Positions 2,331-63,568 of a DNA stretch of 64,000 nucleotides are shown here, piece by piece; within the stretch, counting starts at the first letter, position 1; each line of letters begins with the position of its first letter. Source of the DNA: a candidate division WOR-3 bacterium (lineage in GTDB: Bacteria > Hydrothermota > UBA3072); NCBI GenBank assembly GCA_016930175.1, contig JAFGHJ010000023.1, positions 17,053 through 81,052 of the forward strand, read 5' to 3'. A model generated the notes under the pieces. It ran no database searches. It was not told the origin of the DNA and was given only the letters and a program-made list of their open reading frames with translations. The position numbers and the translations under genes are program-made.

Positions 2331-2458
2331 GCTATTAGCTTTTGGCTATTTGCTTTTAGCTTTTTAATAAAATAAATATCAAAACCATAGGCGGGAAAGC
2401 CAATGGCTAAAAGCTTAAAATATTGTAATTTTACATTTTGATATTTGATTTTTGATAT
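2331..2458. repeat. Heptamer tandem-repeat module (intergenic repeat family)
   Basis: GCTATTA-GCTTTTG-GCTATTT-GCTTTTA-GC, an inverted partner AGCCAATGGCTAAAAGCT, and TTTTGAT-ATTTGAT-TTTTGAT. Confidence 0.7.
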
Positions 2459-2594
2459 TCCGAAGAAAGTAAAACACAAGAACAGTTGACTACTCAAAGA
2501 AAAAAGAAAATTAATAGAATTCCTACAAAAATTACGGAACCTTTCGGATTTTTTTTCGTCTTTATTTATGAAGAACATAACAACCTCCTTATTA

Positions 2595-2630
2595 AAGAAT
2601 GCCCTCTCCCCTCTGAGGGCATTCTTTTAT
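2595..2630 (+). terminator. Intrinsic terminator-like hairpin
   Basis: AAGAATGCCCTC-loop-GAGGGCATTCTT followed by T residues. Confidence 0.7.
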
Positions 2631-2640
2631 AAAAACAGGG

Positions 2641-2668
2641 TTGACAAATTAAAAATTATATATATAAT
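2641..2668 (+). promoter_or_regulatory. Sigma70 promoter of the hsp20 operon
   Basis: TTGACA-16 nt-TATAAT consensus. Confidence 0.75.
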
Positions 2669-2713
2669 ATTTACTGATAATCGTGTAAAAAATCTTAAAA
2701 ACGGGGTTGTATT

Positions 2714-3163
2714 ATGGCTAAGAAAGATTTAGCGCGGGATGATCCAGTTGGGAGGATTTTTAATCTGAGAGAAGATTTTGATGATATAATTAAAGATTTC
2801 TTCGCGGGTTTTTCAAAAGTTGGCGCAGGTATAGGGGTTTACCCTCTTCTGGATATAAAAGAAAACAAAGACAAATATATTATATTTATGGAGATACCTG
2901 GTGTGGAAAAGAAGGATTTAAAAATTTCGATAAAAAAAGATAAACTTATTATTCAAGGAGAAAAGAAGGAAGAAAAGAAAAGGCAAGAAGAATCTTACCT
3001 CCGGGTTGAGCGTTCCTACGGAAATTTTATGAGATCGGTAAGCTTGCCAATGGAGGTAGATAAATCAAAAATAAACGCTAAGTACACGAAAGGTGTTTTG
3101 AGGATTACTCTACCAAAGACAGAAAAAAGAAAAACTAAAGAAGTAGAAGTTAAAATAACCTAA
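2714..3163 (+). CDS. Small heat shock protein Hsp20/alpha-crystallin
   Basis: ERSYGNFMRSVSLP and AKYTKGVLRITLPK alpha-crystallin motifs. Confidence 0.95.
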   Translation: MAKKDLARDDPVGRIFNLREDFDDIIKDFFAGFSKVGAGIGVYPLLDIKENKDKYIIFMEIPGVEKKDLKISIKKDKLIIQGEKKEEKKRQEESYLRVERSYGNFMRSVSLPMEVDKSKINAKYTKGVLRITLPKTEKRKTKEVEVKIT

Positions 3164-9469: not shown

Positions 9470-9478
9470 AAAATATTT

Positions 9479-9762
9479 TCACACGGAGACACGGAGAACG
9501 CGGAGATTTTTTTGTTGTTTTCCCCACCCAACCCCAAAAAATACTATCTCACACAAAGCCACTTTGCAGGATTATTTTTAGGTATTAAAAACATTCATCT
9601 ATTTGTGTTATTTGTTGTTTCTCTCGTGGGGGTGTGGGAGGGAAAAACAAATTTAATTTTCTTTCTTTGTGTTCTTTGTGGCTTTGTGTGAGATAAATGG
9701 GGTGGAGTGGGGTTTTTAAGCAACATATTTTTTCTTTGTGTCTTTGTGCTCTTTGCGTGAGA
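9479..9762. repeat. Nested inverted-repeat element made of nonamer modules and C/G tracts
   Basis: Perfect 18-bp IR at 9545-9562/9678-9695; CCCCACCCAACCCC versus GGGGTGGAGTGGGG; outer CACGGAGA repeats versus CTTTGTG repeats. Confidence 0.85.
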
Positions 9763-13894: not shown

Positions 13895-15964
13895 TTGAGC
13901 TTAAAGAAAAATCTTAACGAAGAACAGGAAAAAGCAGTTACACACACTTCCGGCCCCGCGCTTGTATTAGCAGGGGCCGGAAGTGGCAAAACAAGAGTTA
14001 TAACTTACAGGATCGTTTACCTTTTAGAGCAAAAAGACGTAAAACCCTATAATATCCTTGCTGTGACTTTTACAAATAAGGCAGCCGACGAAATGAAAGA
14101 GCGTCTATATTCATTGGTAAGGAGGTCGACAAAAGGAATATGGATGGGAACATTCCACTCAATTTGTGCACGATTATTACGTGAATTCGCTTCCTGCACG
14201 ACATATTCGAGGAATTTTATTATTTACGATACTCAGGATCAACATAATCTGATCAAAAATATTATAAGAGATTCCGATATAGGAGAAAAAACCCTTGATT
14301 TTTATTATGTTCACCGCACTATATCAAATCTAAAGAACAGACTTATTGATGAATACGAATTCAAACCATACAATTATAAAACAGAACTGATTAAGAATAT
14401 CTATCAGGAATATCAAACAAGACTTAAAGAAAATGACGCGATGGATTTTGACGATCTTTTATTCAATTTCTACACACTTCTCGACTCCAACACGGAAATA
14501 AGAAAGAATTTAAATGATAGGTTCAAATACAAATTGGTTGACGAATATCAGGATACCAATCCTTCGCAGTATCAGATATTAAAAAAATTGTCGGAGAGAT
14601 ATAAAGATGTCTTTGTTGTGGGTGACGACGACCAGTCAATATACGGGTTCAGAGGTGCGGATATAAACAATATTCTTGACTTTGAGGATGATTTTCCAAA
14701 TTCAAAAGTTTACAAACTTGAAAGAAATTATAGATCTACAAAGAGAATTCTTGAAGTAGCCTCAACTGTCGTTAAAAATAACCGCTTAAGAAAAGGGAAA
14801 ACCCTCTGGACCAAAGAGGAAGAGGGAGAAAAAATCACGCTTTTTTCGGCTTTTTCGGAGAAAGAAGAAGCCGCCAAACTAATAAAACTTTTAAAAAAAG
14901 AACTGGGCAAATACAATAAGAAGGATATACTTATTGCTTACAGAACAAACGCTCAATCAAGAGCAATAGAAGATGCTTTATTAAAAGAAGAAATTCCGTA
15001 CGTGATCGTAGGAGGAGTGAAATTTTATCAGAGAAAGGAAATAAAGGATATCCTATCCTATGTTAAGTTCATAGTCAACAAGAAGGATACGGTTTCCTTT
15101 TTCCGGATTTTAAACACTCCGAGAAGAGGTATCGGCAAAATAACAAGAGAAAAAACAGAAATGAAAGCAAAGGAAGAAAATATTTCTCTCTGGGAGGCTT
15201 CATGTAAGCTAGCCGGACAGGAACAGCCAATCGCGGATTTTGTAAATCTCATAAAATCTCTGGAAGAAATAAAGCGTATAGATGAACTTATAGTGGCGAT
15301 TGTAGAGAAAACCGGATATGTGGATATTCTTAAAGAGACGGATACGATTGAATCGGAAAGCAGAATCGAGAATATACAGGAATTGCTATCGGCAGCATAT
15401 GAGTTTACTGAGAACTCGGAGAAGTATTCGCCGGAAGAATACCTGACCGAAGTGGGATTAAAAACCGACATCGATAGCTGGAGTCGAACTGATTCCGTCA
15501 ATTTAATGACTCTGCATAACACAAAAGGACTTGAATTCGACGTAGTTTTTATAGTCGGAATCGGGGAAGGGCTTCTGCCTCATTACAGAAGTATTAAGGA
15601 AGGCAACACGGAAGAAGAGCGTCGTCTTTTTTATGTCGGAATAACAAGAGCACGGAAGAAATTATTTTTGTCTTATTTCTTAACACACGGAGCAGGATGG
15701 GGAAGCACAAGAAGTATTCTTCCATCATCTTTCTTAAAGGAATTACCCCCCGGAGCTATCGAAAACCTGGAAGATTATACACCTGGCGGAAACGAAAAGA
15801 AGCAATATATTTTAAGAGATAATAAAAATGATAGTAAGTGGGTAAATCATCCTATATTCGGCAGGGGAGAGATATTGGATGTGGTGGACGGAGACAAATT
15901 ATTGATATCATTTAACGGCACGACAAAAAAAATCAAACGGAGGTTCTTCGATGAAAGAAGTTGA
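13895..15964 (+). CDS. pcrA: ATP-dependent DNA helicase PcrA/UvrD
   Basis: AGAGSGKT, VTFTNKAA, VDEYQDTN, VGDDDQSIYGFRGA, NYRST and EERRLFYVGITRA motifs. Confidence 0.95.
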   Translation: MSLKKNLNEEQEKAVTHTSGPALVLAGAGSGKTRVITYRIVYLLEQKDVKPYNILAVTFTNKAADEMKERLYSLVRRSTKGIWMGTFHSICARLLREFASCTTYSRNFIIYDTQDQHNLIKNIIRDSDIGEKTLDFYYVHRTISNLKNRLIDEYEFKPYNYKTELIKNIYQEYQTRLKENDAMDFDDLLFNFYTLLDSNTEIRKNLNDRFKYKLVDEYQDTNPSQYQILKKLSERYKDVFVVGDDDQSIYGFRGADINNILDFEDDFPNSKVYKLERNYRSTKRILEVASTVVKNNRLRKGKTLWTKEEEGEKITLFSAFSEKEEAAKLIKLLKKELGKYNKKDILIAYRTNAQSRAIEDALLKEEIPYVIVGGVKFYQRKEIKDILSYVKFIVNKKDTVSFFRILNTPRRGIGKITREKTEMKAKEENISLWEASCKLAGQEQPIADFVNLIKSLEEIKRIDELIVAIVEKTGYVDILKETDTIESESRIENIQELLSAAYEFTENSEKYSPEEYLTEVGLKTDIDSWSRTDSVNLMTLHNTKGLEFDVVFIVGIGEGLLPHYRSIKEGNTEEERRLFYVGITRARKKLFLSYFLTHGAGWGSTRSILPSSFLKELPPGAIENLEDYTPGGNEKKQYILRDNKNDSKWVNHPIFGRGEILDVVDGDKLLISFNGTTKKIKRRFFDERS

Positions 15965-19021: not shown

Positions 19022-21770
19022 GATCAAGAAAGCGTCTGTTCACAACTTAAAAGGAATAGACGTCGATATACCGCGTGACGAGTTGGTGATTATAACCGGC
19101 ATTTCCGGGTCGGGCAAATCTTCTCTGGCGTTTGATACAATATACGCGGAAGGACAGAGAAGATATGTCGAATCGCTGTCGGCTTACGCCAGACAGTTCT
19201 TAGGTGTTATGGATAAGCCGGAGGTTCAATCTATAACAAACCTGTCCCCCACAATTTCAATAGAACAGAGAAAACTTTCTCGTAACCCTCGTTCAACCGT
19301 GGGTACGGTAACCGAAATATACGATTATCTTCGTGTTCTTTTCGCGAGAACCGGAACCGCAGAGTGTTACAATTGCGGAAAGGAAATATCTTCTCAGACC
19401 GTGGATGAAATTGTTGCTCAAATTTTATCATACCCTAAAGATTCGCATCTATACATACTTGCTCCTATTGCCAGAGGGAAAAAGGGTACATTTTCGGCAG
19501 AGTTGCGTAGAATTGAGGAAAAAGGATATGTAAGAGTGATAATAGACGGCGAAATTTTTGATATTGAGAGCGTTCCCGAACTCGATAAAAACAAACCGCA
19601 TAATATCGAAATAGTCGTAGATAGAATAATGCCAAAAAAAGAAATAAGAAGCAGAATTGCAGATTCCGTTGAAACCGCTCTTTCAGAAACCGAAGGTATA
19701 TTAATATTGAGGGATATCGATAAAGACGAGAACAGAATATTCTCCACGCAATTTGCATGTCCCGACTGCGGAATAAGTTATCCTGAAATTTCTCCGAGGC
19801 TATTTTCTTTTAATTCTCCCTACGGAGCCTGTCCGAAGTGTCAGGGCATAGGAACCGAGATGGAAATAGACCCGGAGAATATAATCCTTAACGAATCTTT
19901 ATCGATTCTTGAAGGGGCAATAGCGCCAGTAGGAGAACCCGGAGGGAGATTCCTGCGCGAATTAAATGATGTTGCATTTAAATATAATTTGGACTTAAAC
20001 AACCCCTGGGAAGATATAAATGAAAAAGATAGAAATATAATTTTATACGGTGCTGATTACTGGGAGGGAGTGATACCCTATCTGAACAGAAGACACCGCA
20101 GTACCGAATCCGATTGGATAAGAAGCGAGATAGAAAAATATATGATCTTTGCACCCTGCACCGAATGTGGCGGCTCTCGCCTGCGAAAGGAAGCTCTGTC
20201 CATAAAAATAAATAATAAAAACATACATGATGTCGCTAAGATGAACATTACTCAAGCAAGAAAATTCACGGAAAATATAAAATTCAATGATGAAAGGCAG
20301 AAAATTGCTAATGAATTAATAAGAGAGATCCTTCACCGTCTTCGTTTCTTGGAAGACGTAGGCGTAGATTACCTGACTCTGGAAAGGTCGACTCAAACAC
20401 TTGCCGGAGGAGAAGCGCAGAGAGTACATCTCGCGACTCAAATCGGCTCCGGTCTGGTTGGAATTATTTATATCCTCGACGAGCCGACTATTGGTCTGCA
20501 TGAAAGAGACATACTGAGGCTGATCAAAACTTTGAAATCTCTTAGAGATATCGGAAATACTGTAATATTGGTAGAACATGATTTCAAAAGTATCTTATCC
20601 GCGGATTGGGTAATAGACCTTGGTCCAGGCGCAGGTGCGAAAGGAGGAAAAGTCGTATTTACAGGTACCCCGGGGGATTTGAAGAAAAACGGTAAAACTA
20701 TAACAGGCAAATATCTCTCCGGAAAAGAAAAAATTCCTGTACCTGATAAGCGAAATAAAAAGAAAAAAGATAAAACCATCAAAATTCTGGGTGCTGAAGG
20801 CAACAATCTTAAAAAGCTGGACGTCGAAATACCTCTGAACTGCTTTGTTTGTATAACGGGTGTTTCGGGTTCAGGGAAAAGTACCCTGCTTATCGATATT
20901 TTATACCGGGCGCTCGCGAGAACCTTCCACGGTTCAAGATATCTTCCTCTTCCTCACGAAAAAATAGAAGGAGTGGAAAATATCGATAAAGTAATAAACA
21001 TCGACCAGAGTCCCATAGGCAGAACCCCCCGTTCAAATCCTGCGACGTATACAGGGGCATTTGATCCGATAAGAGACTTTTACGCCGAACTCCCCGCGTC
21101 GAGGGTCAGGGGCTACGACAAGGGAAGATTCTCATTCAATGTAGAGGGAGGAAGATGTGAAGAATGCAGCGGTCAGGGGCAGAAGAAAATAGAAATGCAT
21201 TTCCTGTCCGATGTTTACGTTACCTGTAAAGCCTGCAAGGGAAAAAGGTATAAAAAAGAAACTCTGGAAGTAGAATATAAAGAGAAAAATATAGCGGATG
21301 TTCTCGATTTAACGGTATCGGAAGCTCTTTCCTTTTTTTTCGATATTCCAAATGCGAGGCAAAAGTTAAAACTCCTGCAGGATGTGGGTTTAGGATATAT
21401 AAAACTCGGTCAGCCCGCGACCACTCTTTCGGGTGGGGAAGCCCAGAGAATAAAACTGGCAAAAGAACTTTCCAAAGTCGCAACAGGTGATACTCTTTAT
21501 CTTCTCGACGAACCGACAACCGGTTTGCACGCTCATGATATTCGTTTGTTGTTAAAAATACTGAGGCGGCTCGTTGATATGGGCAACACGGTCGTTGTTA
21601 TCGAACATAATCTTGACGTAATAAAATGCGCGGACTGGATTATAGACCTCGGACCCGAAGGAGGAGCAGAAGGCGGAGAACTTATCGGCGAGGGTACTCC
21701 TGAAGAAATCGCGGAAATAAAAAAATCCTATACGGGGAAATTTCTGAAAGAAATCCTGGAGAAAAATTAA
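19005..21770 (+). CDS. uvrA: Excinuclease ABC subunit A
   Basis: Two ABC ATPase modules (GISGSGKSS, GVSGSGKST), EGQRRYVESLS and zinc fingers. Confidence 0.98.
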   Translation: MKKNIEIKKASVHNLKGIDVDIPRDELVIITGISGSGKSSLAFDTIYAEGQRRYVESLSAYARQFLGVMDKPEVQSITNLSPTISIEQRKLSRNPRSTVGTVTEIYDYLRVLFARTGTAECYNCGKEISSQTVDEIVAQILSYPKDSHLYILAPIARGKKGTFSAELRRIEEKGYVRVIIDGEIFDIESVPELDKNKPHNIEIVVDRIMPKKEIRSRIADSVETALSETEGILILRDIDKDENRIFSTQFACPDCGISYPEISPRLFSFNSPYGACPKCQGIGTEMEIDPENIILNESLSILEGAIAPVGEPGGRFLRELNDVAFKYNLDLNNPWEDINEKDRNIILYGADYWEGVIPYLNRRHRSTESDWIRSEIEKYMIFAPCTECGGSRLRKEALSIKINNKNIHDVAKMNITQARKFTENIKFNDERQKIANELIREILHRLRFLEDVGVDYLTLERSTQTLAGGEAQRVHLATQIGSGLVGIIYILDEPTIGLHERDILRLIKTLKSLRDIGNTVILVEHDFKSILSADWVIDLGPGAGAKGGKVVFTGTPGDLKKNGKTITGKYLSGKEKIPVPDKRNKKKKDKTIKILGAEGNNLKKLDVEIPLNCFVCITGVSGSGKSTLLIDILYRALARTFHGSRYLPLPHEKIEGVENIDKVINIDQSPIGRTPRSNPATYTGAFDPIRDFYAELPASRVRGYDKGRFSFNVEGGRCEECSGQGQKKIEMHFLSDVYVTCKACKGKRYKKETLEVEYKEKNIADVLDLTVSEALSFFFDIPNARQKLKLLQDVGLGYIKLGQPATTLSGGEAQRIKLAKELSKVATGDTLYLLDEPTTGLHAHDIRLLLKILRRLVDMGNTVVVIEHNLDVIKCADWIIDLGPEGGAEGGELIGEGTPEEIAEIKKSYTGKFLKEILEKN

Positions 21771-21963
21771 CCACAAAGGCACAAAGAACACAAAGCCCCA
21801 CTCCCAACTAAATTTTGTATTTATTTAACCACAGAGTGCACAGAGAAAACAACTGTTTGTTTAAAACCCAACCCTTCCCAAAAACAAGTAACAACAAATT
21901 ACACAAATGACACGAATGGTTTAATTTTTCTACTAAATCCCAATCCCTAAATCCTGAATCCCA
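21769..21963. repeat. Intergenic repeat-module array (all arms in one orientation)
   Basis: AACCACAAAGGCACAAAGAACACAAAG + CCCCACTCCC; AACCACAGAGTGCACAGAG; AACAACAAATTACACAAATGACACGAAT; AATCCCAATCCCTAAATCCTGAATCCCAA. Confidence 0.8.
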
Positions 21964-22020
21964 ATTTTACCCTTGAATATTTACCTGAAAATGCGCATAA
22001 TTGTAATAACGGAATAAAAA

Positions 22021-24018
22021 ATGAAGTGTCCGAACTGTAAAGAAAGCGAACTCGCTCCGGTAATGACTAAAAACGGAGTGCTGGTGGATTATTGTCCGAG
22101 ATGCGAAGGTATATGGCTGGATAGGGGAGAAATTTATTATTTTACAAAAACTCCTAAGTATCTGCGCTGGAAAATTAAAGACGGACTAAAGAATTCCAGG
22201 CTCTCTAAAATTCTAAATCCTCATTCTCATACTCCTCTCGTCGGACTACCCTTACGGGGAAACAAAATGGTGATTTACTATTGTCTTAAAACGGGAGGTG
22301 TCTGGATAGATAAAGAAGTACTGGATGAATTTCTTAGCGAAAAAAATTTCTTTATAAAAATCGAAATCGATAAAAATACCTTTCCTTCCGAACTCAAAGC
22401 TCCTGTAGGAGCGCCGGTTCATTTGCCAAACCTGGCTCTGACTTCCGGAGTGACTCTTTTTATCCTTTACGGGCTGCTTTCGCTGATTCTTATTTCGCTG
22501 GTAAATCTGGGCTATCTTGACCCGATTATAGCTTTGATTATCGGGGTTGGCATAGCGTTTGTGCAATTTTTAATCTCTCCTTTCCTGATGGATTTCGTTT
22601 TGCGATTTTTATACAAGATGAGATGGAGACCACTGGAAAGGTTACCAGAAAAATTGCAGACCTTTTTAAAAGATATTTCTCCTAAGCACAATATCAGAGT
22701 GCCGAAATTCGGAATAATTTATGACGGTTCACCCAACGCTTTTACCTACGGGCATGTTCCCAATGACGCAAGAATAATTATCACTTCGGGGCTTATGGAT
22801 CTTCTTGGAGAGGATGAACTCGAAGCGGTGGTGGCGCATGAAATCGGTCACGCCGTACACTGGGATATGCTTGTTATGACTATTGCATACGTTGTACCTT
22901 TGATTTTATACTATATTTTTCGCACCTTGATTCGAATAAAAACAAGCGGAAAAGACAAATCTGCCCCGGTTCGTTACGCAATTGCAATAAGTTCCTATGT
23001 TCTTTATTTGATATCCGAGTACATGGTCCTTGGTTTTTCGCGTGTAAGAGAATATTTTGCCGATAGGTTCGCAGGTAAAAATTGTAATCCTAATAATTTA
23101 GCCTCCGCTCTGGTTAAGATAGGATACGGTCTTGCGGGGAAAGGTAAGAAGAAAGAGCGCAGAAAACCGCAGTTGGAATCGATAAAAGCAATGGGAATAT
23201 TCGACCCGACTTCAGCCGTCTCTTTGGCAATCTCCTCTTATCATCCCCGATTTATGGGAAGAGATGTAGATAAAGATACATTAAAAAGCGTCATGCGGTG
23301 GGATTTATGGAGTCCCTGGGCAAAGTATTATGAGCTTCACTCGACGCATCCTTTAATAGCCAAAAGACTGCTCGCTTTAAGCAGACAGGCGGAAACTAAA
23401 GGTGAGTCTCCTTACGTTGTTTTTAACGAGAGACGTCCTGAAAGTTACTGGGACGAATTTCTGCTCGATTTCTTAATAGTTTTATTGCCGGTTGTTGCGA
23501 TTGTCTTAAGTGCGGTGCTCTTTTTTGTAAAACGGGATATTATGTTCCTTGAATTGGGTGTTTTATTATTGGGTGGAACTTATTTACTTAGAACTTTTTT
23601 CTCGTACAATTTTTCCTTCTTCCCCGAGATGAAAATTTCATCGCTTTTAAAGAAGGTTAAAGTCTCCGGTGTACGTCCTGTACCCTGCAGGATAAAAGGC
23701 AAAATTATCGGTAGAGGTGTACCTGGATTAATATGGAGCGAAGATTTCGTCTTGCAGGATGATACGGGAATAATATTCTTAGATTACCGTCAACCTCTGG
23801 GTATCTGGAATTTCTTGTTCGGGCTTTTGAGGGCTAAAAGATACCAGGGTGAAGAGGTTAAGATAACAGGATGGTACCGCCGTGCCCCGGTTCCTTATAT
23901 AGAAATAAAAAGCATGGAAACATCAACAGGTAAAAGCACCTGTTATGTATTTAGGGTTAAAATTATAGTTGGAATAATACTTACACTTCTTGGCGCAGTT
24001 CTTCTTGTTTTAAAATAA
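22021..24018 (+). CDS. HtpX/M48 membrane metalloprotease with N-terminal zf-TFIIB-like zinc ribbon and C-terminal extension
   Basis: CPNC..CPRCEGIWLDRGE, PNAF, HEIGH, SRVREYFAD and STHP motifs; multiple TM segments. Confidence 0.88.
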   Translation: MKCPNCKESELAPVMTKNGVLVDYCPRCEGIWLDRGEIYYFTKTPKYLRWKIKDGLKNSRLSKILNPHSHTPLVGLPLRGNKMVIYYCLKTGGVWIDKEVLDEFLSEKNFFIKIEIDKNTFPSELKAPVGAPVHLPNLALTSGVTLFILYGLLSLILISLVNLGYLDPIIALIIGVGIAFVQFLISPFLMDFVLRFLYKMRWRPLERLPEKLQTFLKDISPKHNIRVPKFGIIYDGSPNAFTYGHVPNDARIIITSGLMDLLGEDELEAVVAHEIGHAVHWDMLVMTIAYVVPLILYYIFRTLIRIKTSGKDKSAPVRYAIAISSYVLYLISEYMVLGFSRVREYFADRFAGKNCNPNNLASALVKIGYGLAGKGKKKERRKPQLESIKAMGIFDPTSAVSLAISSYHPRFMGRDVDKDTLKSVMRWDLWSPWAKYYELHSTHPLIAKRLLALSRQAETKGESPYVVFNERRPESYWDEFLLDFLIVLLPVVAIVLSAVLFFVKRDIMFLELGVLLLGGTYLLRTFFSYNFSFFPEMKISSLLKKVKVSGVRPVPCRIKGKIIGRGVPGLIWSEDFVLQDDTGIIFLDYRQPLGIWNFLFGLLRAKRYQGEEVKITGWYRRAPVPYIEIKSMETSTGKSTCYVFRVKIIVGIILTLLGAVLLVLK

Positions 24019-24040
24019 ACAGAACTAAAAAGGAGGTCTT

Positions 24041-25180
24041 ATGAAAAGACTTGTATTGGTGTTATTGTTTGCTCTTCCTGCTTTTTTATCGGCTCTTATA
24101 ATTGATCATACCTGTGTTGATATAACACAAATTCCTGAATCCGCGATACTGGCAGCAAAAGATTCTCTTCATATAGCTTACGGCCATACTTCTCACGGAA
24201 GGCAAATAGTAACTGAAGGTATGGCGGGACTCGTCGAATTTGCCAATAACGGGGGGAAGGGGCTTTCCTTGCCGACGGATATTTTTGCATGGAATAACGG
24301 GGGAACAGATGGGGTTCTCGATTTGCACGATTATGCTATGTCCGGAGATGTCGGATATTATCCGCAATGGGTTAACGAAACCAGAACCTATCTCGACAAT
24401 CCGGCAAATTCGGACGTTAATGTTATTATGTGGTCCTGGTGTGGGCAGGTCGATGGACATTATGCGAGCGGGCATCTCTGGGATTGGTATCTTGAGCCTA
24501 TGACAGAGTTAGAGGAAGATTATCCGGAGGTGGTATTTATTTATATGACAGGGCATGTGGATATATACGACGATGCTAACAATAAAGCAGCAAATGACTC
24601 GATAAGGTCATACTGCCAGAATCACGATAAAGTCCTTTTCGATTTTGCGGATTTTGATCGTCATGATCCGGACGGTACTTATTATGAATTTGTAAACGAT
24701 AATTGTGACTACTATGATGCGGTAGGCGGTACTTTACTCGGTAACTGGGCAACAGAATGGCAGAATACTCATACTGAAGGAGTGGACTGGTACGATTGCG
24801 GAGCCGCTCATTCTGTATCTTTAAACGCGAATCAGAAAGCATACGGGGCCTGGTGGATGTGGGCACGCCTTGCTGGGTGGGGACCCGCCGGAATATCCGA
24901 GAATCCGGATTCCGATAGCGATTTAAAACTATCTGTTGTTAATGATATAAATGTTATATCAGACAATACGATTGAACTCTCCTTTTATATTCCCGAAGAT
25001 GGTCCAGCGACAATAGAAGCTTATAACATAAGTGGGGCAAAAATCGATTTAATCTTAAGAGATAATCTTCCGGCAGGGTCTCATAGTTGCTCTTGGGATA
25101 GAAACGGAAAATCAGGAGTTATAATTATAAAGTTAAAACACAGTTCGGGTATAACTTCGGTTAAATTGAACTGTATTTAA
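24041..25180 (+). CDS. Secreted protein, putative SGNH-like domain plus T9SS-type C-terminal domain
   Basis: Signal peptide, AYGHTSHG, and a C-terminal YNISG..G..SW..SGVIIIKL sorting-like domain; AGGAGG RBS. Confidence 0.6.
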   Translation: MKRLVLVLLFALPAFLSALIIDHTCVDITQIPESAILAAKDSLHIAYGHTSHGRQIVTEGMAGLVEFANNGGKGLSLPTDIFAWNNGGTDGVLDLHDYAMSGDVGYYPQWVNETRTYLDNPANSDVNVIMWSWCGQVDGHYASGHLWDWYLEPMTELEEDYPEVVFIYMTGHVDIYDDANNKAANDSIRSYCQNHDKVLFDFADFDRHDPDGTYYEFVNDNCDYYDAVGGTLLGNWATEWQNTHTEGVDWYDCGAAHSVSLNANQKAYGAWWMWARLAGWGPAGISENPDSDSDLKLSVVNDINVISDNTIELSFYIPEDGPATIEAYNISGAKIDLILRDNLPAGSHSCSWDRNGKSGVIIIKLKHSSGITSVKLNCI

Positions 25181-25185
25181 AAAAA

Positions 25186-26661: not shown

Positions 26662-27689
26662 TATATACACCTTGTTTTGTTTATATAAAGCAAATCGGAG
26701 AGAAGTGCGTAGCCGGTTTCTCTTTTTCCTGCGCCGGGACCGGAAACCATTATATTTCCGAGAGTATCCGTAGTGAAGTTTATTGCGTTTATTGAACCCG
26801 TTATCTTAGAGAGGGGATCCTGATCACTTAAAATCTCGGGAGCAACAGAAGCAATAATTCCACTTTCGGTCTTCTTGACCGAGGCTATAAGTTTCCAGTG
26901 TTTGTGATCCTTTAAAGCTTTGATTATATCCTTTTCCGTTACGGTATCAATACCCTTTACGGAGACATCCTTGATTTTTAGATCGCCTCCCATAAGAACA
27001 TTTGCAACAATAACTATTTTTGCGGCAGAATCCCATCCTTTTATATCGGCTTCAGGCTGTTCTTCGGCAATACCTTTTTTTCTTGCTTTTTTTAAGGCTT
27101 CTTCATAAGAGAGTCCGATTTCCATCTTGGTTAGAATGTAATTGGCAGTTCCGTTCATTATCCCCCTGACTTCTTTTATTTCAATACCTTTAAAGGTAGA
27201 TTCAGCAAGATTTATCACGGGAGTTCCTGAAAGAACAGTTCCTTCAAAACGAAAGCCAACGTCGTTTTTACTTGCAATATCTTTCAGTTCCCTGTAAGCA
27301 AGAACGATCGGACCTTTATTTGTGGTTACTACATTCTTCTTATTATTTAGAGCGGTTCGAATTAGAGACAAGCCGGGTTCCCCGGTTTTAAGGTTGGTTG
27401 GGGTTGCCTCTACAATTGTATCTGCATTTGCTTCTTTTATAGTTTTTTCTGAATCCCAACCCTTTACTCCGTCAGGATAATCTTTAATATTATTATCTTT
27501 CTGTAATAGAGCCAATATTTCTTCGATGTTTAATCCTTTCTCGGAAAAAACGGAACCGACAACAGGGTCGGAGATAGCCGTAACCAAAGGATTAAAGTTA
27601 TATTCCTTTTGAAGGATATCTTTTTTCTCGAGGAGTAATTCTAATAAACCTCTATTTACAGTTCCTAAACCGATCAGAGCCAATTTCAT
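26661..27689 (-). CDS. hom: Homoserine dehydrogenase
   Basis: GLGTV Rossmann motif, VVTTNKGP, FEGTVLSGTP, GIMNGTANYIL and GPGAG motifs. Confidence 0.92.
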   Translation of the reverse strand: MKLALIGLGTVNRGLLELLLEKKDILQKEYNFNPLVTAISDPVVGSVFSEKGLNIEEILALLQKDNNIKDYPDGVKGWDSEKTIKEANADTIVEATPTNLKTGEPGLSLIRTALNNKKNVVTTNKGPIVLAYRELKDIASKNDVGFRFEGTVLSGTPVINLAESTFKGIEIKEVRGIMNGTANYILTKMEIGLSYEEALKKARKKGIAEEQPEADIKGWDSAAKIVIVANVLMGGDLKIKDVSVKGIDTVTEKDIIKALKDHKHWKLIASVKKTESGIIASVAPEILSDQDPLSKITGSINAINFTTDTLGNIMVSGPGAGKRETGYALLSDLLYINKTRCI

Positions 27690-27720
27690 TCAAATCTCCT
27701 TATTATTGTATTAACGAACA

Positions 27721-27748
27721 AATATAGAAAAACTTCTTTTGTTGTCAA
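27721..27748 (-). promoter_or_regulatory. Promoter of the hom-NSS operon
   Basis: Minus strand TTGACA-16 nt-TATATT. Confidence 0.6.
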
Positions 27749-27753
27749 GGGAA

Positions 27754-37475: not shown

Positions 37476-37478
37476 CTC

Positions 37479-45867: not shown

Positions 45868-45925
45868 TTACTCCTCCTTTACTGTGTTTTTGTTTATGAG
45901 TATATAATGCATGGAAAATTTGTCA

Positions 45926-46153
45926 ACACCCCCACACCCCACCAAAACTGAAATTGGACGCAGATTAACGCAGATCAAGAAGATTTATTTTAAAAAAAAC
46001 AACCCACTTACCAAAAACTACTTGAAACAGAAAGGGTAGAAAGATACATTTGTGTTATTAGTTCTAAAAAAGTGGGGTGTTGGGTAGTTAATAAAATCCT
46101 AAGAATCTGCGTTTATCTGCGTACTAATATAGGGGTGGGTAGGGTTTTAGGGG
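45926..46153. repeat. Inverted-repeat element of the intergenic family
   Basis: ACGCAGATTAACGCAGAT (45958-45975) versus ATCTGCGTTTATCTGCGT (46105-46122), 17/18 complementary; flanked by a C-tract and a G-tract. Confidence 0.85.
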
Positions 46154-49703: not shown

Positions 49704-49717
49704 CCTCCTTTTTGAGT

Positions 49718-49746
49718 ATTATAAACAATTTGATTTTATATGTCAA
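49718..49746 (-). promoter_or_regulatory. Promoter of the lpoB operon (near-identical to the CBM9 gene 1 promoter)
   Basis: Minus strand TTGACA-17 nt-TATAAT. Confidence 0.75.
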
Positions 49747-49768
49747 GGAACAAAAAACCATACACAGT

Positions 49769-50021
49769 ACTCCCAAGCTATTAGCTGTTTGCCTTTAGCT
49801 GTTGGTTTAAAAAATATACAAATAAAAACTTTGTTTTCTCTGTGTGAAATTTAGCGAGTAGGTATAAGAGAGCAGTTAGCAGTAAAAAAACTTTGTGGGC
49901 TTTGTGTCTTTGTGTGAGACCAATTTGGGGTTGTGGGATGGTTTTTAAACAACAATATATTTTTTTCTCTGTGTATTTCTGTGTGCTCTGTGGTTTAATT
50001 GGTTCTTGGGGAAGGGGGTGG
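49769..50021. repeat. Intergenic repeat-module array (reverse-orientation relative of 27754-27950)
   Basis: 28-nt identity with 27923-27950 (reverse complement); CTTTGTG and CTCTGTG repeats, TTTTAAACAACAA and G-tracts. Confidence 0.85.
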
Positions 50022-61154: not shown

Positions 61155-61250
61155 TAACCACAAGATTAACACAGAATTTTCATTGTATTTTTTAAATAAA
61201 ACTTAAAAGAGTGATGGGTTTTAGTATGTTTTGTGTGTTTCGTGGTTTAA
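61155..61250. repeat. Short inverted copy of the intergenic family between convergent genes
   Basis: AACCACAAGATTAACACAGAA ... GTTTTGTGTGTTTCGTGGTT. Confidence 0.65.
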
Positions 61251-62459
61251 TAAACTTCCCAGCCTTTTCATTATTTCAAGACAGGCTCTTGTGTTGTGAT
61301 ATGGAGCTTTCCATGGACCCAATTTATCTTCTTCGGATAGATAAGGTTCGCCTTTTCTATTTACCCTGAAGAACCATTCTCCGTTTTCCCTGTCGATAAT
61401 GTGGTTTTTTACAAAATTCCAGCAGTTGTAAGAAGCATCAAGGAATTTTTCGTCGTTCGATATTTGAAAGGCGTTCAGGAATCCGACCATCGCTTCTGCC
61501 TGGGGCCACCAGTGTTTATCCGTATCTGTTACTGCATCTCTTTTCCCCTCGTTCATCAAAGCTCCGTCGGAATCTATCCCTTCCTTTAGCACAATATTTA
61601 CTGTTTGCAGAGAAGACTTCTTAACTTTTTCGAGCAGGTCTTCGCGATTTAGAATCTCGGCAGCTTCGCACAACAGCCAGCTCCCTTCTATATCGTGTCC
61701 ATATGAAAAAAGATTGGATTTTAAATTCCAGAACTCATCGAAGAATAAATTAAAATGTCCGGTTTTAGGTTCGATTATTTTATCGAGAAATATGTTAATC
61801 AATAGTTCTAATTGTTTTTCTAATTTCTTATTCTTCCATATATTGAGGAGATTTGCATATCCTTCGAGTACGTGTAAATGTGTATTCATAGTTTTCTTTT
61901 CGTTCTGGTCTTTATCACTCAATCGGACATCTCCGGTAGGTTCCCATTCCCTATCGCATGCTTCAAAATAGCCGGTATATTCAGGGTCGAAACTGTATTT
62001 TTCAATTAATTCGAAAAGCTCGATTGCCCATTTAAGAGTGTCTTGATTACCGGAAATTTTGTAGTATTCAACCAGAGCGTAGATGCAGAAAGCCTGCGCA
62101 TAAATTTGTTTTTTATCGTTGATCGGATTACCTTTACAATCGAGCATCCAGTAAATACCGCCTTTTTCGCGGTCGCGGAAATGTTCTTTTATGTATTCAT
62201 AGGCACGTTTGGCTAAGTTTAGATATTTTTCTTCTTTAAATTTACTGTATATGATTGAGTATGTCCAGAGTATTCGTGTGTTCAGTACAGCCGATTTGGG
62301 GGAATCTTTAATTTTTTTTCCGTCATTTAAAATTCTTCCTAAAAATCCCCCGTTCTCTTCGTCGACTGTTTTATCCCAGAATGGAAGGATGTTATTTTTT
62401 AGTTCGTTTTCTATTTCTTTATAATAGTTATCTGCATTCATGAAATGCCTATTTAACAT
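61221..62459 (-). CDS. Cellobiose 2-epimerase / N-acylglucosamine 2-epimerase (AGE) family
   Basis: NILPFW, N.RILWTYS, KQIYAQAF, KTMNTHLHVLE, SYGHDIEGSWLL, WWPQAE and WKAPYHN.R motifs. The start may be 62441. Confidence 0.92.
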   Translation of the reverse strand: MLNRHFMNADNYYKEIENELKNNILPFWDKTVDEENGGFLGRILNDGKKIKDSPKSAVLNTRILWTYSIIYSKFKEEKYLNLAKRAYEYIKEHFRDREKGGIYWMLDCKGNPINDKKQIYAQAFCIYALVEYYKISGNQDTLKWAIELFELIEKYSFDPEYTGYFEACDREWEPTGDVRLSDKDQNEKKTMNTHLHVLEGYANLLNIWKNKKLEKQLELLINIFLDKIIEPKTGHFNLFFDEFWNLKSNLFSYGHDIEGSWLLCEAAEILNREDLLEKVKKSSLQTVNIVLKEGIDSDGALMNEGKRDAVTDTDKHWWPQAEAMVGFLNAFQISNDEKFLDASYNCWNFVKNHIIDRENGEWFFRVNRKGEPYLSEEDKLGPWKAPYHNTRACLEIMKRLGSLLNHETHKTY

Positions 62460-62549
62460 AATTTAATTAAGGCTTTTTTTGGAATTTGTCAAGCTTATTT
62501 TTATTGACAAAAGAGGGTTTTATTTTAATATTCAATCAGGGGGTGAATT

Positions 62550-63422
62550 ATGGCATCTGATAAAAAAACGAAGGGAAGTACGAAAGGTATACCCGTTTTG
62601 CACGTGGAAGGCGACTGTATAGCTCGTGCCTGGGAGAATTCTCTTATCTCGCTTTACGAGAATGGATGCGATATCAAGACTCAATATGATAAACCAAACG
62701 ATCCTCCAAGTAAAGATGCAACGATGATTATTACGGTCGCAGATCCTCTAAAAGAGCCGATGCTTCATAAGGATTTTCCCGCAGGTATTGAATTTCTGCA
62801 GGAGTATGTGATGGAGGTTTGCGAAGGGATTAAGGATCATCTTGTACGCGATACTGGTGACCCGGAGGATACACGCTGGGAATATACATATCATCAGAGG
62901 CTGTTTGCATATGAGGCGCCGGGTGTAAAACCTTTGAACCAGATTGAAATTATGTGCCAGAAGCTAAACGACAAGCCTTATACGAGGAGAGCCCAGGCTA
63001 TTACCTGGAAAGTGTGGGAAGATAACGACTGTTACGACCCCGCGTGCCTTCAAAGTCTCTGGTGCCGTATTACAGAGGAAGACGGTGAATCTTTCCTGAA
63101 TATGAACGTCCGTTTCCGCTCGAATGACGCCTACAAGGCTGCATTTATGAACATATTTGCGCTTGTCCAGTTGCAAGCTAAAATCGCGAAAAGAATTTCG
63201 GAGATTTCAAATAAGGATATTAAAATTGGGCGATACTGTCATTTTGCTGACAGCTATCACCTTTACGGTTCTTATTTTGAAGAATTCAAGGGGCGTTTCT
63301 TGGGGGCTCTCGAGAAGCGTACTTTCGAAGGACGTACGATGCGTTATGAAGATTTTCGCGAGATGATGGAAGCCGCCCGCCCGTCGATTCTTGAACGGGT
63401 AAAGAATATGGAGAGAGAGTGA
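62550..63422 (+). CDS. thyA: Thymidylate synthase (divergent, archaeal-like ThyA)
   Basis: YTY..RL, TRRAQAITW, catalytic PACLQ, RSND..N and H..DSYHLY motifs. Confidence 0.8.
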   Translation: MASDKKTKGSTKGIPVLHVEGDCIARAWENSLISLYENGCDIKTQYDKPNDPPSKDATMIITVADPLKEPMLHKDFPAGIEFLQEYVMEVCEGIKDHLVRDTGDPEDTRWEYTYHQRLFAYEAPGVKPLNQIEIMCQKLNDKPYTRRAQAITWKVWEDNDCYDPACLQSLWCRITEEDGESFLNMNVRFRSNDAYKAAFMNIFALVQLQAKIAKRISEISNKDIKIGRYCHFADSYHLYGSYFEEFKGRFLGALEKRTFEGRTMRYEDFREMMEAARPSILERVKNMERE

Positions 63423-63465
63423 GTTGAGTCGGGAATTAAAGGTTGATCGTGGAAAGAAGTTAAAA

Positions 63466-63568
63466 CATTAGTGTTATTTGTGTAATTTGTTGTTTCTGAT
63501 TTTGGGGTGATGGGTTGAGTTTTAAATAAACGAAATAATTTAGTGTATTTAGCGTGTTTCGTGGTTAA
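63466..63568. repeat. Intergenic repeat-module array
   Basis: TTAGTGTTATTTGTGTAATTTGTTGTT (inverse of the module at 21890-21917), a G-tract, and TTAGTGTATTTAGCGTGTTTCGTGGTT. Confidence 0.75.

Follow-up and report, generated by a model that had tools for sequence, protein, structure and literature searches.

The window analysed here, 64,000 nucleotides of a candidate division WOR-3 bacterium, raises the question of what the repeat mosaics in its intergenic spacers are. They had been described as at least 11 spacers assembled from one small kit of short tandem repeats and C/G tracts, and interpreted as a non-autonomous, REP/BIME-like mobile system. The observation itself is confirmed and the interpretation partly supported. 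On balance, the spacers probably hold gene-less, nested and partly decayed copies of widespread palindromic insertion cassettes. Relatives carrying a gene for either a tiny nuclease or a helix bundle span many bacterial phyla, so the cassettes appear to be selfish mobile DNA of a little-studied kind. The searchable literature yielded no description of them.

TRF or a regular expression flags arrays in 10 of the 11 spacers; the eleventh, at 61155–61180 on the plus strand, holds two decamer units (TAACCACAAGATTAACACAGAAT) spaced by 10 nt and starting at the upstream gene's stop codon, which were recognized by eye and are not flagged by the expression. Two of the spacers are nested palindromes. 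At 9476–9732, as defined by the token map and DNA folding, CACGGAG ×3 (9482–9505), the linker TTTGTTGTT, a C tract and TCTCACACAAAGCCAC lead to the centre, followed by ATTTGTG units, a linker, a G tract, CTTTGTG ×3 (9665–9690), TGTGAGA and a second G tract. At 45922–46148, a C tract, GGACGCAGATTAACGCAGAT, an inner C/G pair, ATCTGCGTTTATCTGCG and a G tract follow one another, and the CGCAGAT arms are the same as those flanking a GxxExxY gene on contig C1. As DNA, the former folds into one nested hairpin (z −4.46) and the latter likewise into a nested hairpin (z −6.29), and in each case 0 of 200 shuffles were as stable. A heptamer hairpin read from the sequence at 2329–2420 has a T-rich arm (GCTATTA/GCTTTTN; TRF period 7/14 at 2329–2364), a loop and an A-rich arm (GGCTAAAAGCTTAAAA), and TRF finds a plus-strand TTTGATA heptamer array at 2437–2459.

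The remaining spacers show how closely the modules adjoin genes and promoters. The stop codon of uvrA is the TAA of an element end, TTAACCAC, which is followed by CACAAAG ×3 and a C tract (21768–21811, plus strand) and in place of which genome G004 has a different block. Further along the plus strand lie AACCACAGAGTGCACAGAG, a linker, a C tract, AACAACAAA and CACAAAT/CACGAAT units (21826–21917, from reading and the token map), and then an AATCCCA-type heptamer array (21925–21960) that adjoins the promoter of an M48 peptidase and is the portion of the spacer shared with G004. At 27754–27897 (plus), a C tract borders the −35 box of the divergent hom promoter and is followed by AACCACAGAG arrays (27779–27830), a linker with C tract, and AACCACAAAGATGACACAG; the adjacent module AAAGGCAAACAGCTAATAGCTTGG (27917–27962, plus) lies upstream of a 12/12 promoter match and is duplicated on the minus strand at 49715–49814 (86% self-hit). 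TRF and reading place a C tract, CACAGAT/CGCAGAT units (34215–34231), a T-rich linker and four ATTCAACN octamers at 34187–34290 (plus). An AATTATG/AATTTTG heptamer array (35779–35811, plus, TRF) is followed on the minus strand by an inverted copy of the 27780 block, with CTCTGTG arrays ending in GTGGTTAA and a G tract (35822–35891), directly upstream of a conserved CCCTTGACT promoter. The spacer at 37258–37475 contains a CACAAAG ×3 arm, G-type heptamers, ATCTGCG, TTTGGGA ×3, a CTCTGTG arm (37409–37453) and a G tract upstream of a tRNA promoter; orthologous spacers were compared at this site and at the preceding one. The inverted recurrence reported for 27780–27827 was reproduced, with 44 of 48 columns identical to the reverse complement of 35822–35865 and, more loosely, 40 of 49 to that of 37409–37453. 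On the minus strand, finally, 49769–49998 comprises GCTATTA-type heptamers, CTTTGTG ×3 with TGTGAGA, a G tract, AAACAACAA and CTCTGTG ×3 ending in GTGGTTTAA, and 63467–63572 (TRF and reading) comprises ATTTGTG-type units, a linker, a G tract and TTTAGTG/TTTCGTG units ending in GTGGTTAA.

Genome-wide, the modules form a strongly enriched family relative to shuffled intergenic DNA. Intergenic and coding DNA were separated by a rough ORF call that greedily picked reading frames of 80 aa or more, rather than by a gene finder, CAC-type units were defined as C[AG]CNNA[AGT], and 20 dinucleotide shuffles served as controls. The 243,605 bp of intergenic DNA contain 705 arrays of at least two CAC-type units, compared with 19.1±4.5 (maximum 29) after shuffling, and 256 of at least three units, compared with 0.2; coding DNA, with 8.6 times more sequence, has 215 and 19, respectively. 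Near-perfect three-copy tandems are likewise in excess over shuffled sequence at periods of 7 (81 versus 0.9), 8 (34 versus 0.2) and 9 (8 versus 0), and the 8-mer CACAGAGA has 303 intergenic and 64 coding occurrences. For the C/G tract, the looser form CCCACCCC is enriched (36 intergenic versus 19 coding occurrences), but the exact 9-mer GGGGTGGGG shows no excess across the genome (23 versus 17.9 expected under uniform composition). About half of all spacers (477/928) carry a CAC-type or 7/8-mer array, and the proposed module spacing of 60–80 bp agrees with a start-to-start peak at 70–89 nt between successive same-strand arrays (82/250).

The modules are palindrome arms of fixed chirality. Among the 71 spacers with both CAC orientations, 69 have CAC…GTG facing, none the reverse and two are interleaved; of 151 arrays from across phyla, 105 are paired with a facing array and 21 with a diverging one. 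Non-CAC 7/8-mer arrays have the opposite chirality, with G-type before C-type in 25 spacers against 6. The varied order and orientation noted in the original prediction is not free combination: the modules keep strictly to a palindromic chirality, around a single centre in each spacer. Arms within a spacer match better than arms of different spacers (0.72 versus 0.63, p about 1e-6), and the outer array end is conserved, 130 of 149 arrays from many phyla having C at position −1. Among the points against the cassette reading are these: the complementarity of partner arms is modest, with 0.8 reached by 35–45% of pairs, and 310 of 381 CAC-array spacers are single-orientation, without a recognisable partner arm.

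Full cassettes elsewhere enclose a single small gene between their arms. Type N carries GxxExxY, a protein of the PD-(D/E)XK nuclease family, between arms of CAC-type 8–10-mers (consensus C-R-C-N-R-A-N, outer end TTARC|CAC), with the CAC strand always forming the 5′ arm and, in this genus, an additional TTGTTGTTT linker and C/G tract. Type H carries a four-helix-bundle protein of the 23S-IVS protein family between arms of 7/8-mers of diverse sequence, of which the 5′ arm is the G-rich one. The suggestion that similar runs flank both genes was borne out: 14 of 22 GxxExxY loci have a CAC-type array upstream and its inverse downstream, with units spaced by 9 nt (35 cases), 8 nt (16) or 10 nt (6), and four-helix-bundle loci have inverted 7/8-mer arrays, with CAC-type arrays at 0 of 32. 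Flank complementarity of at least 14/16 was found at 15 of 21 GxxExxY and 22 of 32 four-helix-bundle loci, against 4–5% in cross-locus controls, and arm variants co-vary across the two sides of the cassette. An alignment of 15 sequences shows conservation of the nuclease motif D…ExK. On the negative side, the PDB contains neither a GxxExxY structure nor a detectable relative. Within the window, none of 48 scanned ORFs matched Pfam transposase or integrase families, as had been claimed (10 had no family at all at the thresholds used); an enzyme encoded elsewhere was also proposed, and two GxxExxY and three four-helix-bundle genes of this genome, all outside the window, are candidates.

The two cargo genes also tend to co-occur with the arrays across genomes. 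In the same phylum, GxxExxY (E≤1e-30, hand tally) is found in 35 of 38 array-rich and 19 of 113 array-poor genomes, and the four-helix-bundle gene in 38 of 38 and 43 of 113, although these genomes are phylogenetically non-independent; the three array-rich genomes from which GxxExxY is absent are 86–90% complete. Farther afield, GxxExxY is present in four of five array-holding genomes, with fragments only in the fifth, and in 0 of 14 control genomes. The triple CACAGAG array itself recurs in many phyla, as identical 25-nt triple arrays.

Comparison of relatives shows that modules are replaced rapidly while neighbouring promoters stay conserved, with blocks swapped even in a relative of 91–93% nucleotide identity, and that insertion-type polymorphisms with intact empty sites exist. 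One site is empty in three genomes, holds a GxxExxY cassette in another and a different mosaic in one more; a second is empty in two and filled in three, with the same termini and different interiors. Insertion points are gene boundaries, either at the stop codon or between RBS and start codon, and some cassettes lie in operon junctions where stop and start codons overlap in relatives. Two cassettes of genome G034 have identical interiors at different loci. Against the cassette reading, 82 cross-phylum hairpins have no general target-site duplication (longest flanking direct repeat 4.61 nt versus 4.35 nt in controls), and the stretch between RBS and ATG is duplicated at just two sites, both in the same genome. 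In G007, a 95% complete congener, the counts for three array types are 0, 2 and 0, the spacers are short and module-free, and GxxExxY is missing; that it retains two four-helix-bundle cassettes with its spacers uncolonised speaks against the cassette reading.

These polymorphisms support the predicted non-autonomous mobile system, of which the REP/BIME part is not supported; how the cassettes move and what the enzyme contributes we infer. We give the following scheme about half the probability of the cassette reading itself. The arms would extrude as a hairpin or cruciform, and the small GxxExxY nuclease, acting in trans on gene-less copies, would cut them. The break could then be repaired by copying another copy, with the shared arms as homology, so that the cassette interior would be inserted or replaced and each spacer would end up with one palindrome centre and a mosaic of modules. 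Action in trans must be assumed, since a GxxExxY gene lies within reach at only 1 of 118 cross-phylum and 0 of 120 viral-contig loci.

The palindromes might instead be host cis-elements kept to insulate neighbouring genes, with mobility secondary, an explanation that we regard as unlikely. A transcript leaving a gene in either direction would meet an A/C-rich, G-poor stretch, possibly a Rho loading site, and the completed long hairpin could terminate it, be cut by RNase III or stabilise its 3′ end. The placement of arrays fits this: they point inward from the nearest gene end in convergent (123 versus 30) and divergent spacers (117 versus 41), start at a median of 43–60 nt past stop codons and about 111–116 nt before start codons, which leaves room for a promoter, and begin in sense orientation at most 20 nt from the stop codon of 120 genes. 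Some module class, moreover, persists at a site when the sequence is swapped. At 20001–40000 of the window, all 25 terminator-like sites (18.4±4.2 expected) lie inside ORFs and the module spacers have no canonical intrinsic terminator, so the palindromes might serve the host as terminators or insulators. However, one congener manages without palindromes and with short spacers, cassettes sit in operon junctions, where termination would harm, and the same palindromes separate divergent promoters, a position in which transcription is not expected. Sense folds are no better than antisense ones (22 versus 20, p=0.70), and module spacers have no Rfam match at E≤0.1.

Explanations from the repeat units themselves fare less well. 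That oligomeric small proteins, for example a pentameric four-helix-bundle protein contacting one unit per subunit, bind the arrays and organise DNA or RNA, the mosaic reflecting co-evolving specificities, would suit arrays of 2–5 units, the five chains in the entry of 2gsc (the solved structure most closely related to the four-helix-bundle protein) and the retention of the same arm unit by orthologous four-helix-bundle genes. We hold it improbable: three four-helix-bundle and two GxxExxY genes face hundreds of arrays with more than 100 unit types, and the unit–protein correlation comes from orthologous loci and may be shared descent. Heptamer STRR repeats are known from cyanobacterial intergenic DNA, and the arrays could similarly be neutral, microsatellite-like slippage products, with no element and no enzyme. 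The 103 distinct heptamer units among 226 intergenic TRF rows, homogeneous inside one array and different between arrays, are what slippage would leave. This reading, to which we assign a very low probability, is already strained by the fixed chirality, the identical triple arrays and conserved outer ends in many phyla, the mutual match of arms around a cargo gene, and the occurrence of orthologous sites in empty and in filled states; an array-less congener has a similar tandem-repeat-free background, and the paired G034 interiors contradict a purely local origin. Mobilisation of a REP/BIME system by a RAYT would account for intergenic mosaics of small palindromes, and the genome does have one Y1_Tnp gene, but this is effectively refuted. 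No module flanks that gene, which has its own unrelated hairpins containing GGTCGCGGAAG, and the units form tandem 7–10-mer arrays rather than single, GTAG-headed REP palindromes. This 11-mer occurs three times in the genome, twice in hairpins flanking Y1_Tnp; a third flanking hairpin has a one-base variant, and a related hairpin lies on contig C12.

The cassettes can be set beside several known systems. REP/BIME elements of Enterobacteria and Pseudomonas comprise hundreds of small intergenic palindromes; they are non-autonomous, cluster in mosaics and rely on an enzyme whose gene lies elsewhere, in their case a RAYT, and the cassettes share this general plan. They differ in having tandem 7–10-mer arms of fixed chirality, in copies that nest instead of alternating, in GxxExxY and a four-helix-bundle protein in place of a Y1 transposase as cargo or candidate enzyme, and in a genome whose own RAYT has separate REPs. 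MITEs, the Correia/NEMIS elements and the modular pneumococcal BOX offer terminal inverted repeats, lengths of 55–250 nt, non-coding hairpins and insertion beside genes; unlike them, the cassettes have tandem-repeat arms, no DDE-transposase parent and no consistent target-site duplication. Intervening sequences of 23S rRNA carry a PF05635 ORF (family name confirmed) within complementary arms and leave the rRNA unit undestroyed. Type H cassettes similarly place their gene inside arms that would form a long transcript stem, and they enter a transcribed unit that survives the insertion, but they lie between protein-coding genes, and the assembly has no 23S rRNA. Intergenic TAACTGA heptamer direct repeats of Beggiatoaceae, Cyanobacteria and Bacteroidetes, described by MacGregor 2015 (PMC4679880) as one dominant heptamer with a proposed translational role, resemble the STRRs and our arrays in their 2–6 tandem copies, often near start codons, and in a patchy cross-phylum spread suggesting horizontal transfer by no known mechanism. 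The searched passages of that paper contain no four-helix-bundle link, no nonamers and only one inverted pair, and the present family differs, as far as those passages go, in its more than 100 units, inverted arms and an arm type tied to the cargo gene. The element family extends well past cyanobacteria, a point missing from the original prediction. Palindrome-associated elements derived from IS200/IS605 have hairpin-forming ends and no target-site duplication, as do the cassettes, which differ in their symmetric ends and in having no association with a Y1 HUH transposase; by this parallel, the short conserved TTARC at the boundary could denote where targeting or cleavage takes place.

The source genome is a draft of 2.34 Mb in 48 contigs (38% GC, 94% complete), and the genes of the window are ordinary housekeeping and envelope genes, several of them with type IX secretion sorting domains. 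All 11 spacers in which the original prediction had seen one kit of short tandem repeats were read: TRF or a regular expression for tandem C[AG]CNNA[AGT] picks out ten of them, and the eleventh, at 61155, holds two decamer units seen by eye. The stretch 27780-27827 does recur in inverted form, with 44 of 48 columns identical at 35822-35865 and 40 of 49 at 37409-37453, and the spacing proposed for the modules is found genome-wide, consecutive same-strand arrays lying mostly 70-89 nt apart (82 of 250). Intergenic DNA is defined here as what falls outside a crude ORF call (ORFs of at least 80 aa, greedy selection) and makes up 10.6% of the genome. It contains 705 arrays of at least two units against 19.1 ± 4.5 in 20 dinucleotide shuffles, so that the anticipated enrichment is clear, and 256 arrays of at least three units against 0.2; coding DNA, which is 8.6 times larger, has 215 and 19, respectively. 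Intergenic rows account for 226 of 350 TRF rows at period 7, 247 of 390 at period 8 and 217 of 470 at period 9, compared with 14 of 101 at period 6 and 16 of 169 at period 12, and strict three-copy tandems of period 7 number 81 versus 0.9 in shuffles. The repertoire of consensus units is large (103 heptamers, 114 octamers and 94 nonamers), and a CAC-type or 7/8-mer array is present in 477 of the 928 spacers of at least 60 nt. As for the C/G tract included in the kit, looser tracts are enriched, whereas the exact 9-mer GGGGTGGGG is not. None of the 48 window ORFs scanned matches a transposase or integrase family, in keeping with the first reading.

The modules had been noted to recur in different order and orientation; they do not combine freely and follow a fixed palindromic rule. 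With TCTCACAC as an anchor (120 hits, mostly inside elements), a recurrent composite is revealed, which runs from (NNCACRRAG)x3 through an A/T run with TTGTTGTTTAAAA, a C tract such as CCCAACCCACAACCCC, and AAATTAAT to CTCACACAAAG(NCACAAAG)x2, and ends in a C tract or a 7/8-mer array. C tracts share the orientation of CAC-strand arrays and G tracts that of GTG-strand arrays, adjacent pairs of tract and array being concordant in 93, 89, 112 and 103 cases and discordant in 14, 7, 6 and 1. Within spacers, CAC-strand arrays lie to the left and GTG-strand arrays to the right: only one orientation is present in 310 of the 381 spacers with CAC arrays, and where both occur (71 spacers) they face each other in 69, are interleaved in two and diverge in none. 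The nearest gene has the CAC strand as its sense strand in convergent spacers (123 versus 30) and as its antisense strand in divergent ones (117 versus 41), and the chirality rule is thus independent of gene orientation. The facing orientation, together with the left and right placement, implies that each spacer is one palindrome with the CAC arm 5' on both strands. Two window spacers, 45922-46148 (z -6.29) and 9476-9732 (z -4.46), each fold into a single nested hairpin that 0 of 200 shuffles match in stability, with linker pairing to its complement, C tract to G tract and array to array. The match between partner arms is moderate (mean 0.72 versus 0.63 for cross-spacer pairs, p~1e-6), reaching at least 0.8 in 35-45% of pairs. 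In the source genome, arrays of 7/8-mers outside the CAC type have the opposite chirality, with the G-type preceding the C-type in 25 spacers, the reverse order in six and interleaving in two, and this chirality is that of the four-helix-bundle cassettes described below. Arrays start at a median of 43-60 nt past a 3' end or about 111-116 nt ahead of a 5' end, and a TTGACA -35 box often adjoins the G tract.

Small genes are found between such arms. The genome encodes two GxxExxY proteins (TIGR04256), three four-helix-bundle proteins (TIGR02436) and one Y1_Tnp protein, and all five genes of the first two families lie between inverted arrays, a link that the first reading had put forward. The two GxxExxY genes score 132.7 and 106 bits against TIGR04256 (curated cut-off 35) and belong to PF13366 (1e-36 and 1e-31) in the PD-(D/E)XK superfamily; across 15 aligned sequences, the nuclease motif D…ExK is kept, with E84 and K86 invariant and D74 at least 90% conserved. 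Sequence and profile searches of the PDB with GxxExxY gave nothing significant. The three four-helix-bundle genes match PF05635, the family of 23S rRNA intervening-sequence proteins, at 1e-37 to 4e-31.

The type of arm goes with the type of cargo. Of 22 GxxExxY loci, drawn from the phylum and from five distant genomes, 14 have a CAC-type array before the gene and its inverse after it, three have the downstream arm alone and one has the arrangement reversed, while the regular expression detects neither in four. A strict lag-identity test mostly returns no period at these flanks, so unit spacing was counted instead, giving 9 nt in 35 cases, 8 nt in 16 and 10 nt in six. CAC-type arrays occur at 0 of 32 four-helix-bundle loci, whose flanks have period 7 (11 upstream, 15 downstream) or period 8 (one upstream, five downstream) and whose upstream arm is purine/G-rich; the window heptamers AATCCCA, ATTCAAC and TTTGGGA are unit types that stand beside four-helix-bundle genes elsewhere. 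The two flanks are complementary at 14 or more of 16 positions in 22 of 32 four-helix-bundle loci and 15 of 21 GxxExxY loci, against 3.9% and 5.1% in cross-locus controls. Arms vary between cassettes and match within them, as in CGCAAAG/CTTTGCG, CACAAAT/ATTTGTG, CGCAGAT/ATCTGCG and CACTGAA/TTCAGTG. In Bacteroides finegoldii (NZ_OY725952.1), a gene already annotated as 'GxxExxY protein' lies between the arms TTCACCACAGAGG… and …CCTCTGTGGTGAA, and this cassette sits between radA and the next gene, whose ATG comes 8 nt later. Labilibaculum euxinus, which like B. finegoldii can be cultured, is another carrier of a full cassette.

Comparison among relatives shows that these cassettes insert into existing gene junctions. 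The genome G034 has two near-identical GxxExxY cassettes, each at an operon junction of its own and separated by 3.7 kb. At site 1, G069, G064 and G087 have no insert and their stop and start codons overlap (…AGGAGGNTAAATG…), G034 has the 482-nt GxxExxY cassette, and G046 has a different, gene-less mosaic of 250 nt. Site 2 is empty in G064 and G087 and filled in G034, G069 and G046 by inserts with common termini (…TTAGCCACAGAG … CTCTGTGGCA…) and differing interiors, which contain GxxExxY in G034 and other modules in G069 and G046. At both G034 sites, the stretch from ribosome-binding site to ATG is present on either side of the insert, a duplication-like repeat confined to these two sites in this one genome; over 82 cross-phylum hairpins, we find no general target-site duplication, the longest flanking direct repeat being 4.61 nt versus 4.35 in controls. 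On the left of the insert, the start codon (ATG in the first site and TTG in the second; stretch L021 of G034:C165, 390-460 and 4080-4150) is in frame through the 9-mer array, which therefore encodes the N-terminus of GxxExxY in G034 (…SHRGTENTER…); the 9-nt period equals three codons.

Spacers in the same genus tell a similar story. In G004, whose genes are 91-93% identical in nucleotides to those of the source genome, and in other congeners, promoters are kept and the adjoining module blocks are swapped for other module sets, which is the turnover that the original prediction called for. Elements also supply stop codons: 13 genes of the source genome take theirs from the element end T-TAR-CCAC, as its TAA or TAG, and in 120 genes a sense-oriented array lies within 20 nt of the stop. 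One of the 13 is the window uvrA, which ends at 21768-21770 in the TAA supplied by the element end TTAACCAC; in G004, the closest relative, the C-terminal uvrA tail and the stop codon differ, which indicates that the insertion replaced the last uvrA codons. A block of about 100 nt, consisting of a AAAGGCAAACAGCTAATAGCTTGG… module and a near-consensus promoter (CCTTGACATATAAAATCAAATT…TATAAT), is present at 27906-28003 and, on the minus strand, at 49715-49814 as copies 86% identical, one of them before a CBM9/T9SS gene and the other before the LpoB-like gene, and promoters may thus move along with modules. At the spacer orthologous to window 35767-35953, the genome G002 has a stretch of 1.6 kb (L015, G002:C8, about 1292-2887, reverse complement) with a CGCAGAT array at its start and GTTAATTG-type arrays at its end, in which a putative HTH-type regulator ORF and, on the opposite strand, a putative membrane-protein ORF can be made out by eye. 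Several contigs from relatives with fragmented assemblies, for example G004:C91, C192 and C212, end in or beside module spacers, and the repeats probably break short-read assemblies.

One congener lacks most of this. G007, which is 95% complete, has no CACAGAGNNCACAGAG arrays, two CACAAAG arrays and no CGCAGAT arrays, against 57-114 CACAAAG and 6-42 CGCAGAT arrays in four congeners, and it has no GxxExxY gene. Its spacers orthologous to those compared are short and module-free; in a 200-kb sample, its median spacer is 69.5 nt (129 nt in the source genome), its CAC arrays number two (39-69 per 200 kb in the source genome) and strict 7/8/9-mer tandems are absent. It retains two four-helix-bundle cassettes with heptamer arms. 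Among 151 genomes sampled across the phylum, CACAGAGNNCACAGAG occurs in 53, with 136 copies in the source genome and only 0-1 hits per genome for the reversed control pattern, and the TCTCACAC-headed subtype is restricted to the genus (13 of 14 congeners, G007 being the exception, and 0 of 137 other genomes). GxxExxY genes (E<=1e-30) are found in 35 of the 38 genomes with at least five arrays and in 19 of the other 113, by a hand tally in which kinship inflates the contrast; in the five of these 19 that were inspected, the GxxExxY genes carry other CAC variants. Four-helix-bundle genes are found in all 38 array-rich genomes and in 43 of the 113 others, again with the contrast inflated by kinship.

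The family extends well beyond the phylum. The 25-nt pattern (CACAGAGNN)x2CACAGAG is present in at least 118 stretches, where we estimate a chance expectation of about 0.3 in 596 Gb, and record titles name Planctomycetota, Acidobacteriota, Chloroflexota, several proteobacterial classes, Bacteroidota, Cyanobacteria, Firmicutes, Verrucomicrobiota, Cloacimonadota and others, isolates included; one culturable carrier of the triple array is Iodobacter arcticus. Among the matches listed, 105 of 151 cross-phylum arrays face a partner no more than 400 nt away and for 21 the partner diverges, hairpin loops are mostly 0-150 nt, and the outer context is TT[A/C][A/G]C immediately before CAC, with C at -1 in 130 of 149 arrays; two of these stretches (L059 and L060) show nested hairpins. 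Only one of 118 loci among the matches listed has either cargo gene within reach, namely GxxExxY, whereas a GxxExxY gene scores above the cut-off elsewhere in four of five host genomes tested, against 0 of 14 control genomes. Predicted viral contigs in IMG/VR (L219-L338) carry the triple CACAGAG array on at least 120 stretches, with up to six copies each; among the matches listed, 48 of 153 arrays face a partner and six diverge from one, so that solo arrays are commoner than paired ones, and GxxExxY and four-helix-bundle genes are near 0 of 120 loci, the four-helix-bundle HMM used for the cross-phylum and viral loci being a weak one built from three sequences. GxxExxY is found in 0 of 50,697 phage records and in seven of 72,556 plasmid records, all seven non-mobilizable.

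We compare these elements with known systems. A REP unit is a single imperfect palindrome of 20-40 nt headed by a conserved GTAG-type tetranucleotide. The elements here resemble REP/BIME in having hundreds of intergenic copies in mosaics (705 arrays; 477 of 928 spacers), but their arms consist of 2-5 tandem units of 7-10 nt with the TT[A/C][A/G]C/CAC outer end, and the sole PF01797 (Y1_Tnp) gene, which should have been flanked by modules had they been of REP/BIME type with RAYT, has none and is flanked by its own hairpin. This RAYT-like ORF of 295 aa lies outside the window (contig C29 of the source genome, 64060-64917) with three copies of a private hairpin, AATTACACA…GGTCGCGGAAGAA…GTGTGTAGTTTGGGGGTGG, around it and one related hairpin at C12:19782-19804, and is a small separate REP/RAYT unit. 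With MITEs, the elements share terminal inverted repeats, small size and the lack of genes, as in the compact GCCAC…GTGGC hairpins of about 60-250 nt in the source genome, although no target-site duplication of fixed length accompanies the 82 cross-phylum hairpins. Like STRR and other heptamer direct repeats they place short tandem heptamers in intergenic DNA; those repeats, however, comprise a few defined heptamers in direct orientation, whereas there are 103 heptamer units here and the arms are inverted and complementary. A 23S rRNA intervening sequence sits in a helix of 23S rRNA and is removed by RNase III; the likeness lies in a PF05635 ORF between complementary arms (22 of 32 loci), and the assembly of the source genome contains no 23S rRNA. 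CRISPR arrays have identical repeats of 23-47 nt, unique spacers and cas genes nearby, and are rejected here, since the stretches between arrays are themselves repeated modules (linker, C tract) and the arrays are inverted rather than direct. Telomere-like polarity of addition is likewise ruled out, by reasoning from the strand orientation of the arrays.

The closest fit is a MITE/REP-like family of palindromic cassettes with tandem-array arms and GxxExxY or four-helix-bundle cargo, and the gene-less elements have their ends in common with the cassettes that carry either gene. The family is widespread and, as far as the literature is searchable, undescribed; we found no published account, and one may exist. 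The nearest account, MacGregor 2015 (PMC4679880), describes direct repeats of the heptamer TAACTGA in intergenic DNA of Beggiatoaceae, Cyanobacteria and Bacteroidetes and suspects horizontal spread, with no mechanism given; PMC3424549 lists PF13366 as of unknown function with multiple transfers, and PMC3090145 gives a Bacteroides fragilis primer that happens to include the motif.

The original prediction of a mobile, non-autonomous system with its enzyme encoded elsewhere is borne out in part, as regards insertion and turnover, while membership of REP/BIME is rejected and the mechanism of movement is one that we infer. The arms are palindromic and of fixed chirality, they nest, and their type is specific to the cargo; the cassettes insert at gene boundaries and are gained, lost and replaced among relatives. 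To our knowledge, neither GxxExxY nor the four-helix-bundle protein is a known transposase. Extruded arms could be cut by GxxExxY, a candidate nuclease, after which repair would copy from another cassette through the common arms, thereby moving the cassette interior or replacing it. Such cutting and copying would account for the single centre of each spacer, for conserved termini with swapped interiors, and for co-occurrence at the level of the genome without physical linkage; the many solo arms are not accounted for. Alternatively, the palindromes may serve the host as terminators or insulators, a reading with which the A/C-rich, G-poor polarity would fit, through Rho loading, as would the finding that 0 of 25 terminator-like sites in window 20001-40000 lie in module spacers; as the primary reason for the elements it is opposed by the module-free congener and by insertions inside operon junctions. 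We see no sign of a selected, strand-specific RNA structure backed by G·U pairs, the sense strand folding more stably in 22 spacers and the antisense strand in 20 (p=0.70), module regions have no Rfam match at gathering thresholds or at E<=0.1, and a search for RNA runs covering window 27650-37600 listed none.

Returning to the cut-and-copy proposal, its fullest form is that of an undescribed, pan-bacterial class of mobile DNA, 'array-armed palindromic cassettes', which would move without a transposase, their extruded arms being recognised by a PD-(D/E)XK GxxExxY protein of 115-130 aa or by a four-helix-bundle protein, with repair of the break copying the cassette or its interior between loci. 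We hold this joint reading only tentatively and think it somewhat unlikely in its entirety. If true, one class would cover the short tandem intergenic repeats of cyanobacterial type, the heptamer repeats found in Beggiatoaceae and Bacteroidetes, and those 23S rRNA intervening sequences that carry an ORF, giving a common origin to repeats reported piecemeal from Cyanobacteria, Bacteroidetes and sulfur bacteria. Two very common 'hypothetical' families, GxxExxY and four-helix-bundle/23S-IVS, would gain a testable role with defined DNA partners, and the cassettes would offer a system for studying how palindromes extrude, how insertions nest and how spacers are rapidly remodelled. Since the elements lie directly against promoters and ribosome-binding sites, annotation is affected, and expression probably is too.

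The window has some further features. Upstream of the HSP20 promoter, 2590-2625 holds a classical G+C-rich hairpin (AAAGAATGCCCTCTCCCCTCTGAGGGCATTCTTT), accompanied by runs of T and A, which resembles an intrinsic terminator acting in both directions and is unlike the module palindromes. On the minus strand, a radical-SAM ORF (37500-38741) shares its last ~34 codons with a plus-strand tRNA gene at 37519-37601. Finally, 15584-15683, inside a UvrD-like helicase gene, gives a sub-threshold Rfam match (50.6 bits versus a gathering score of 65.2, E=1.9e-5) to sRNA n00280 (RF03531), a family described as lying within a helicase gene.
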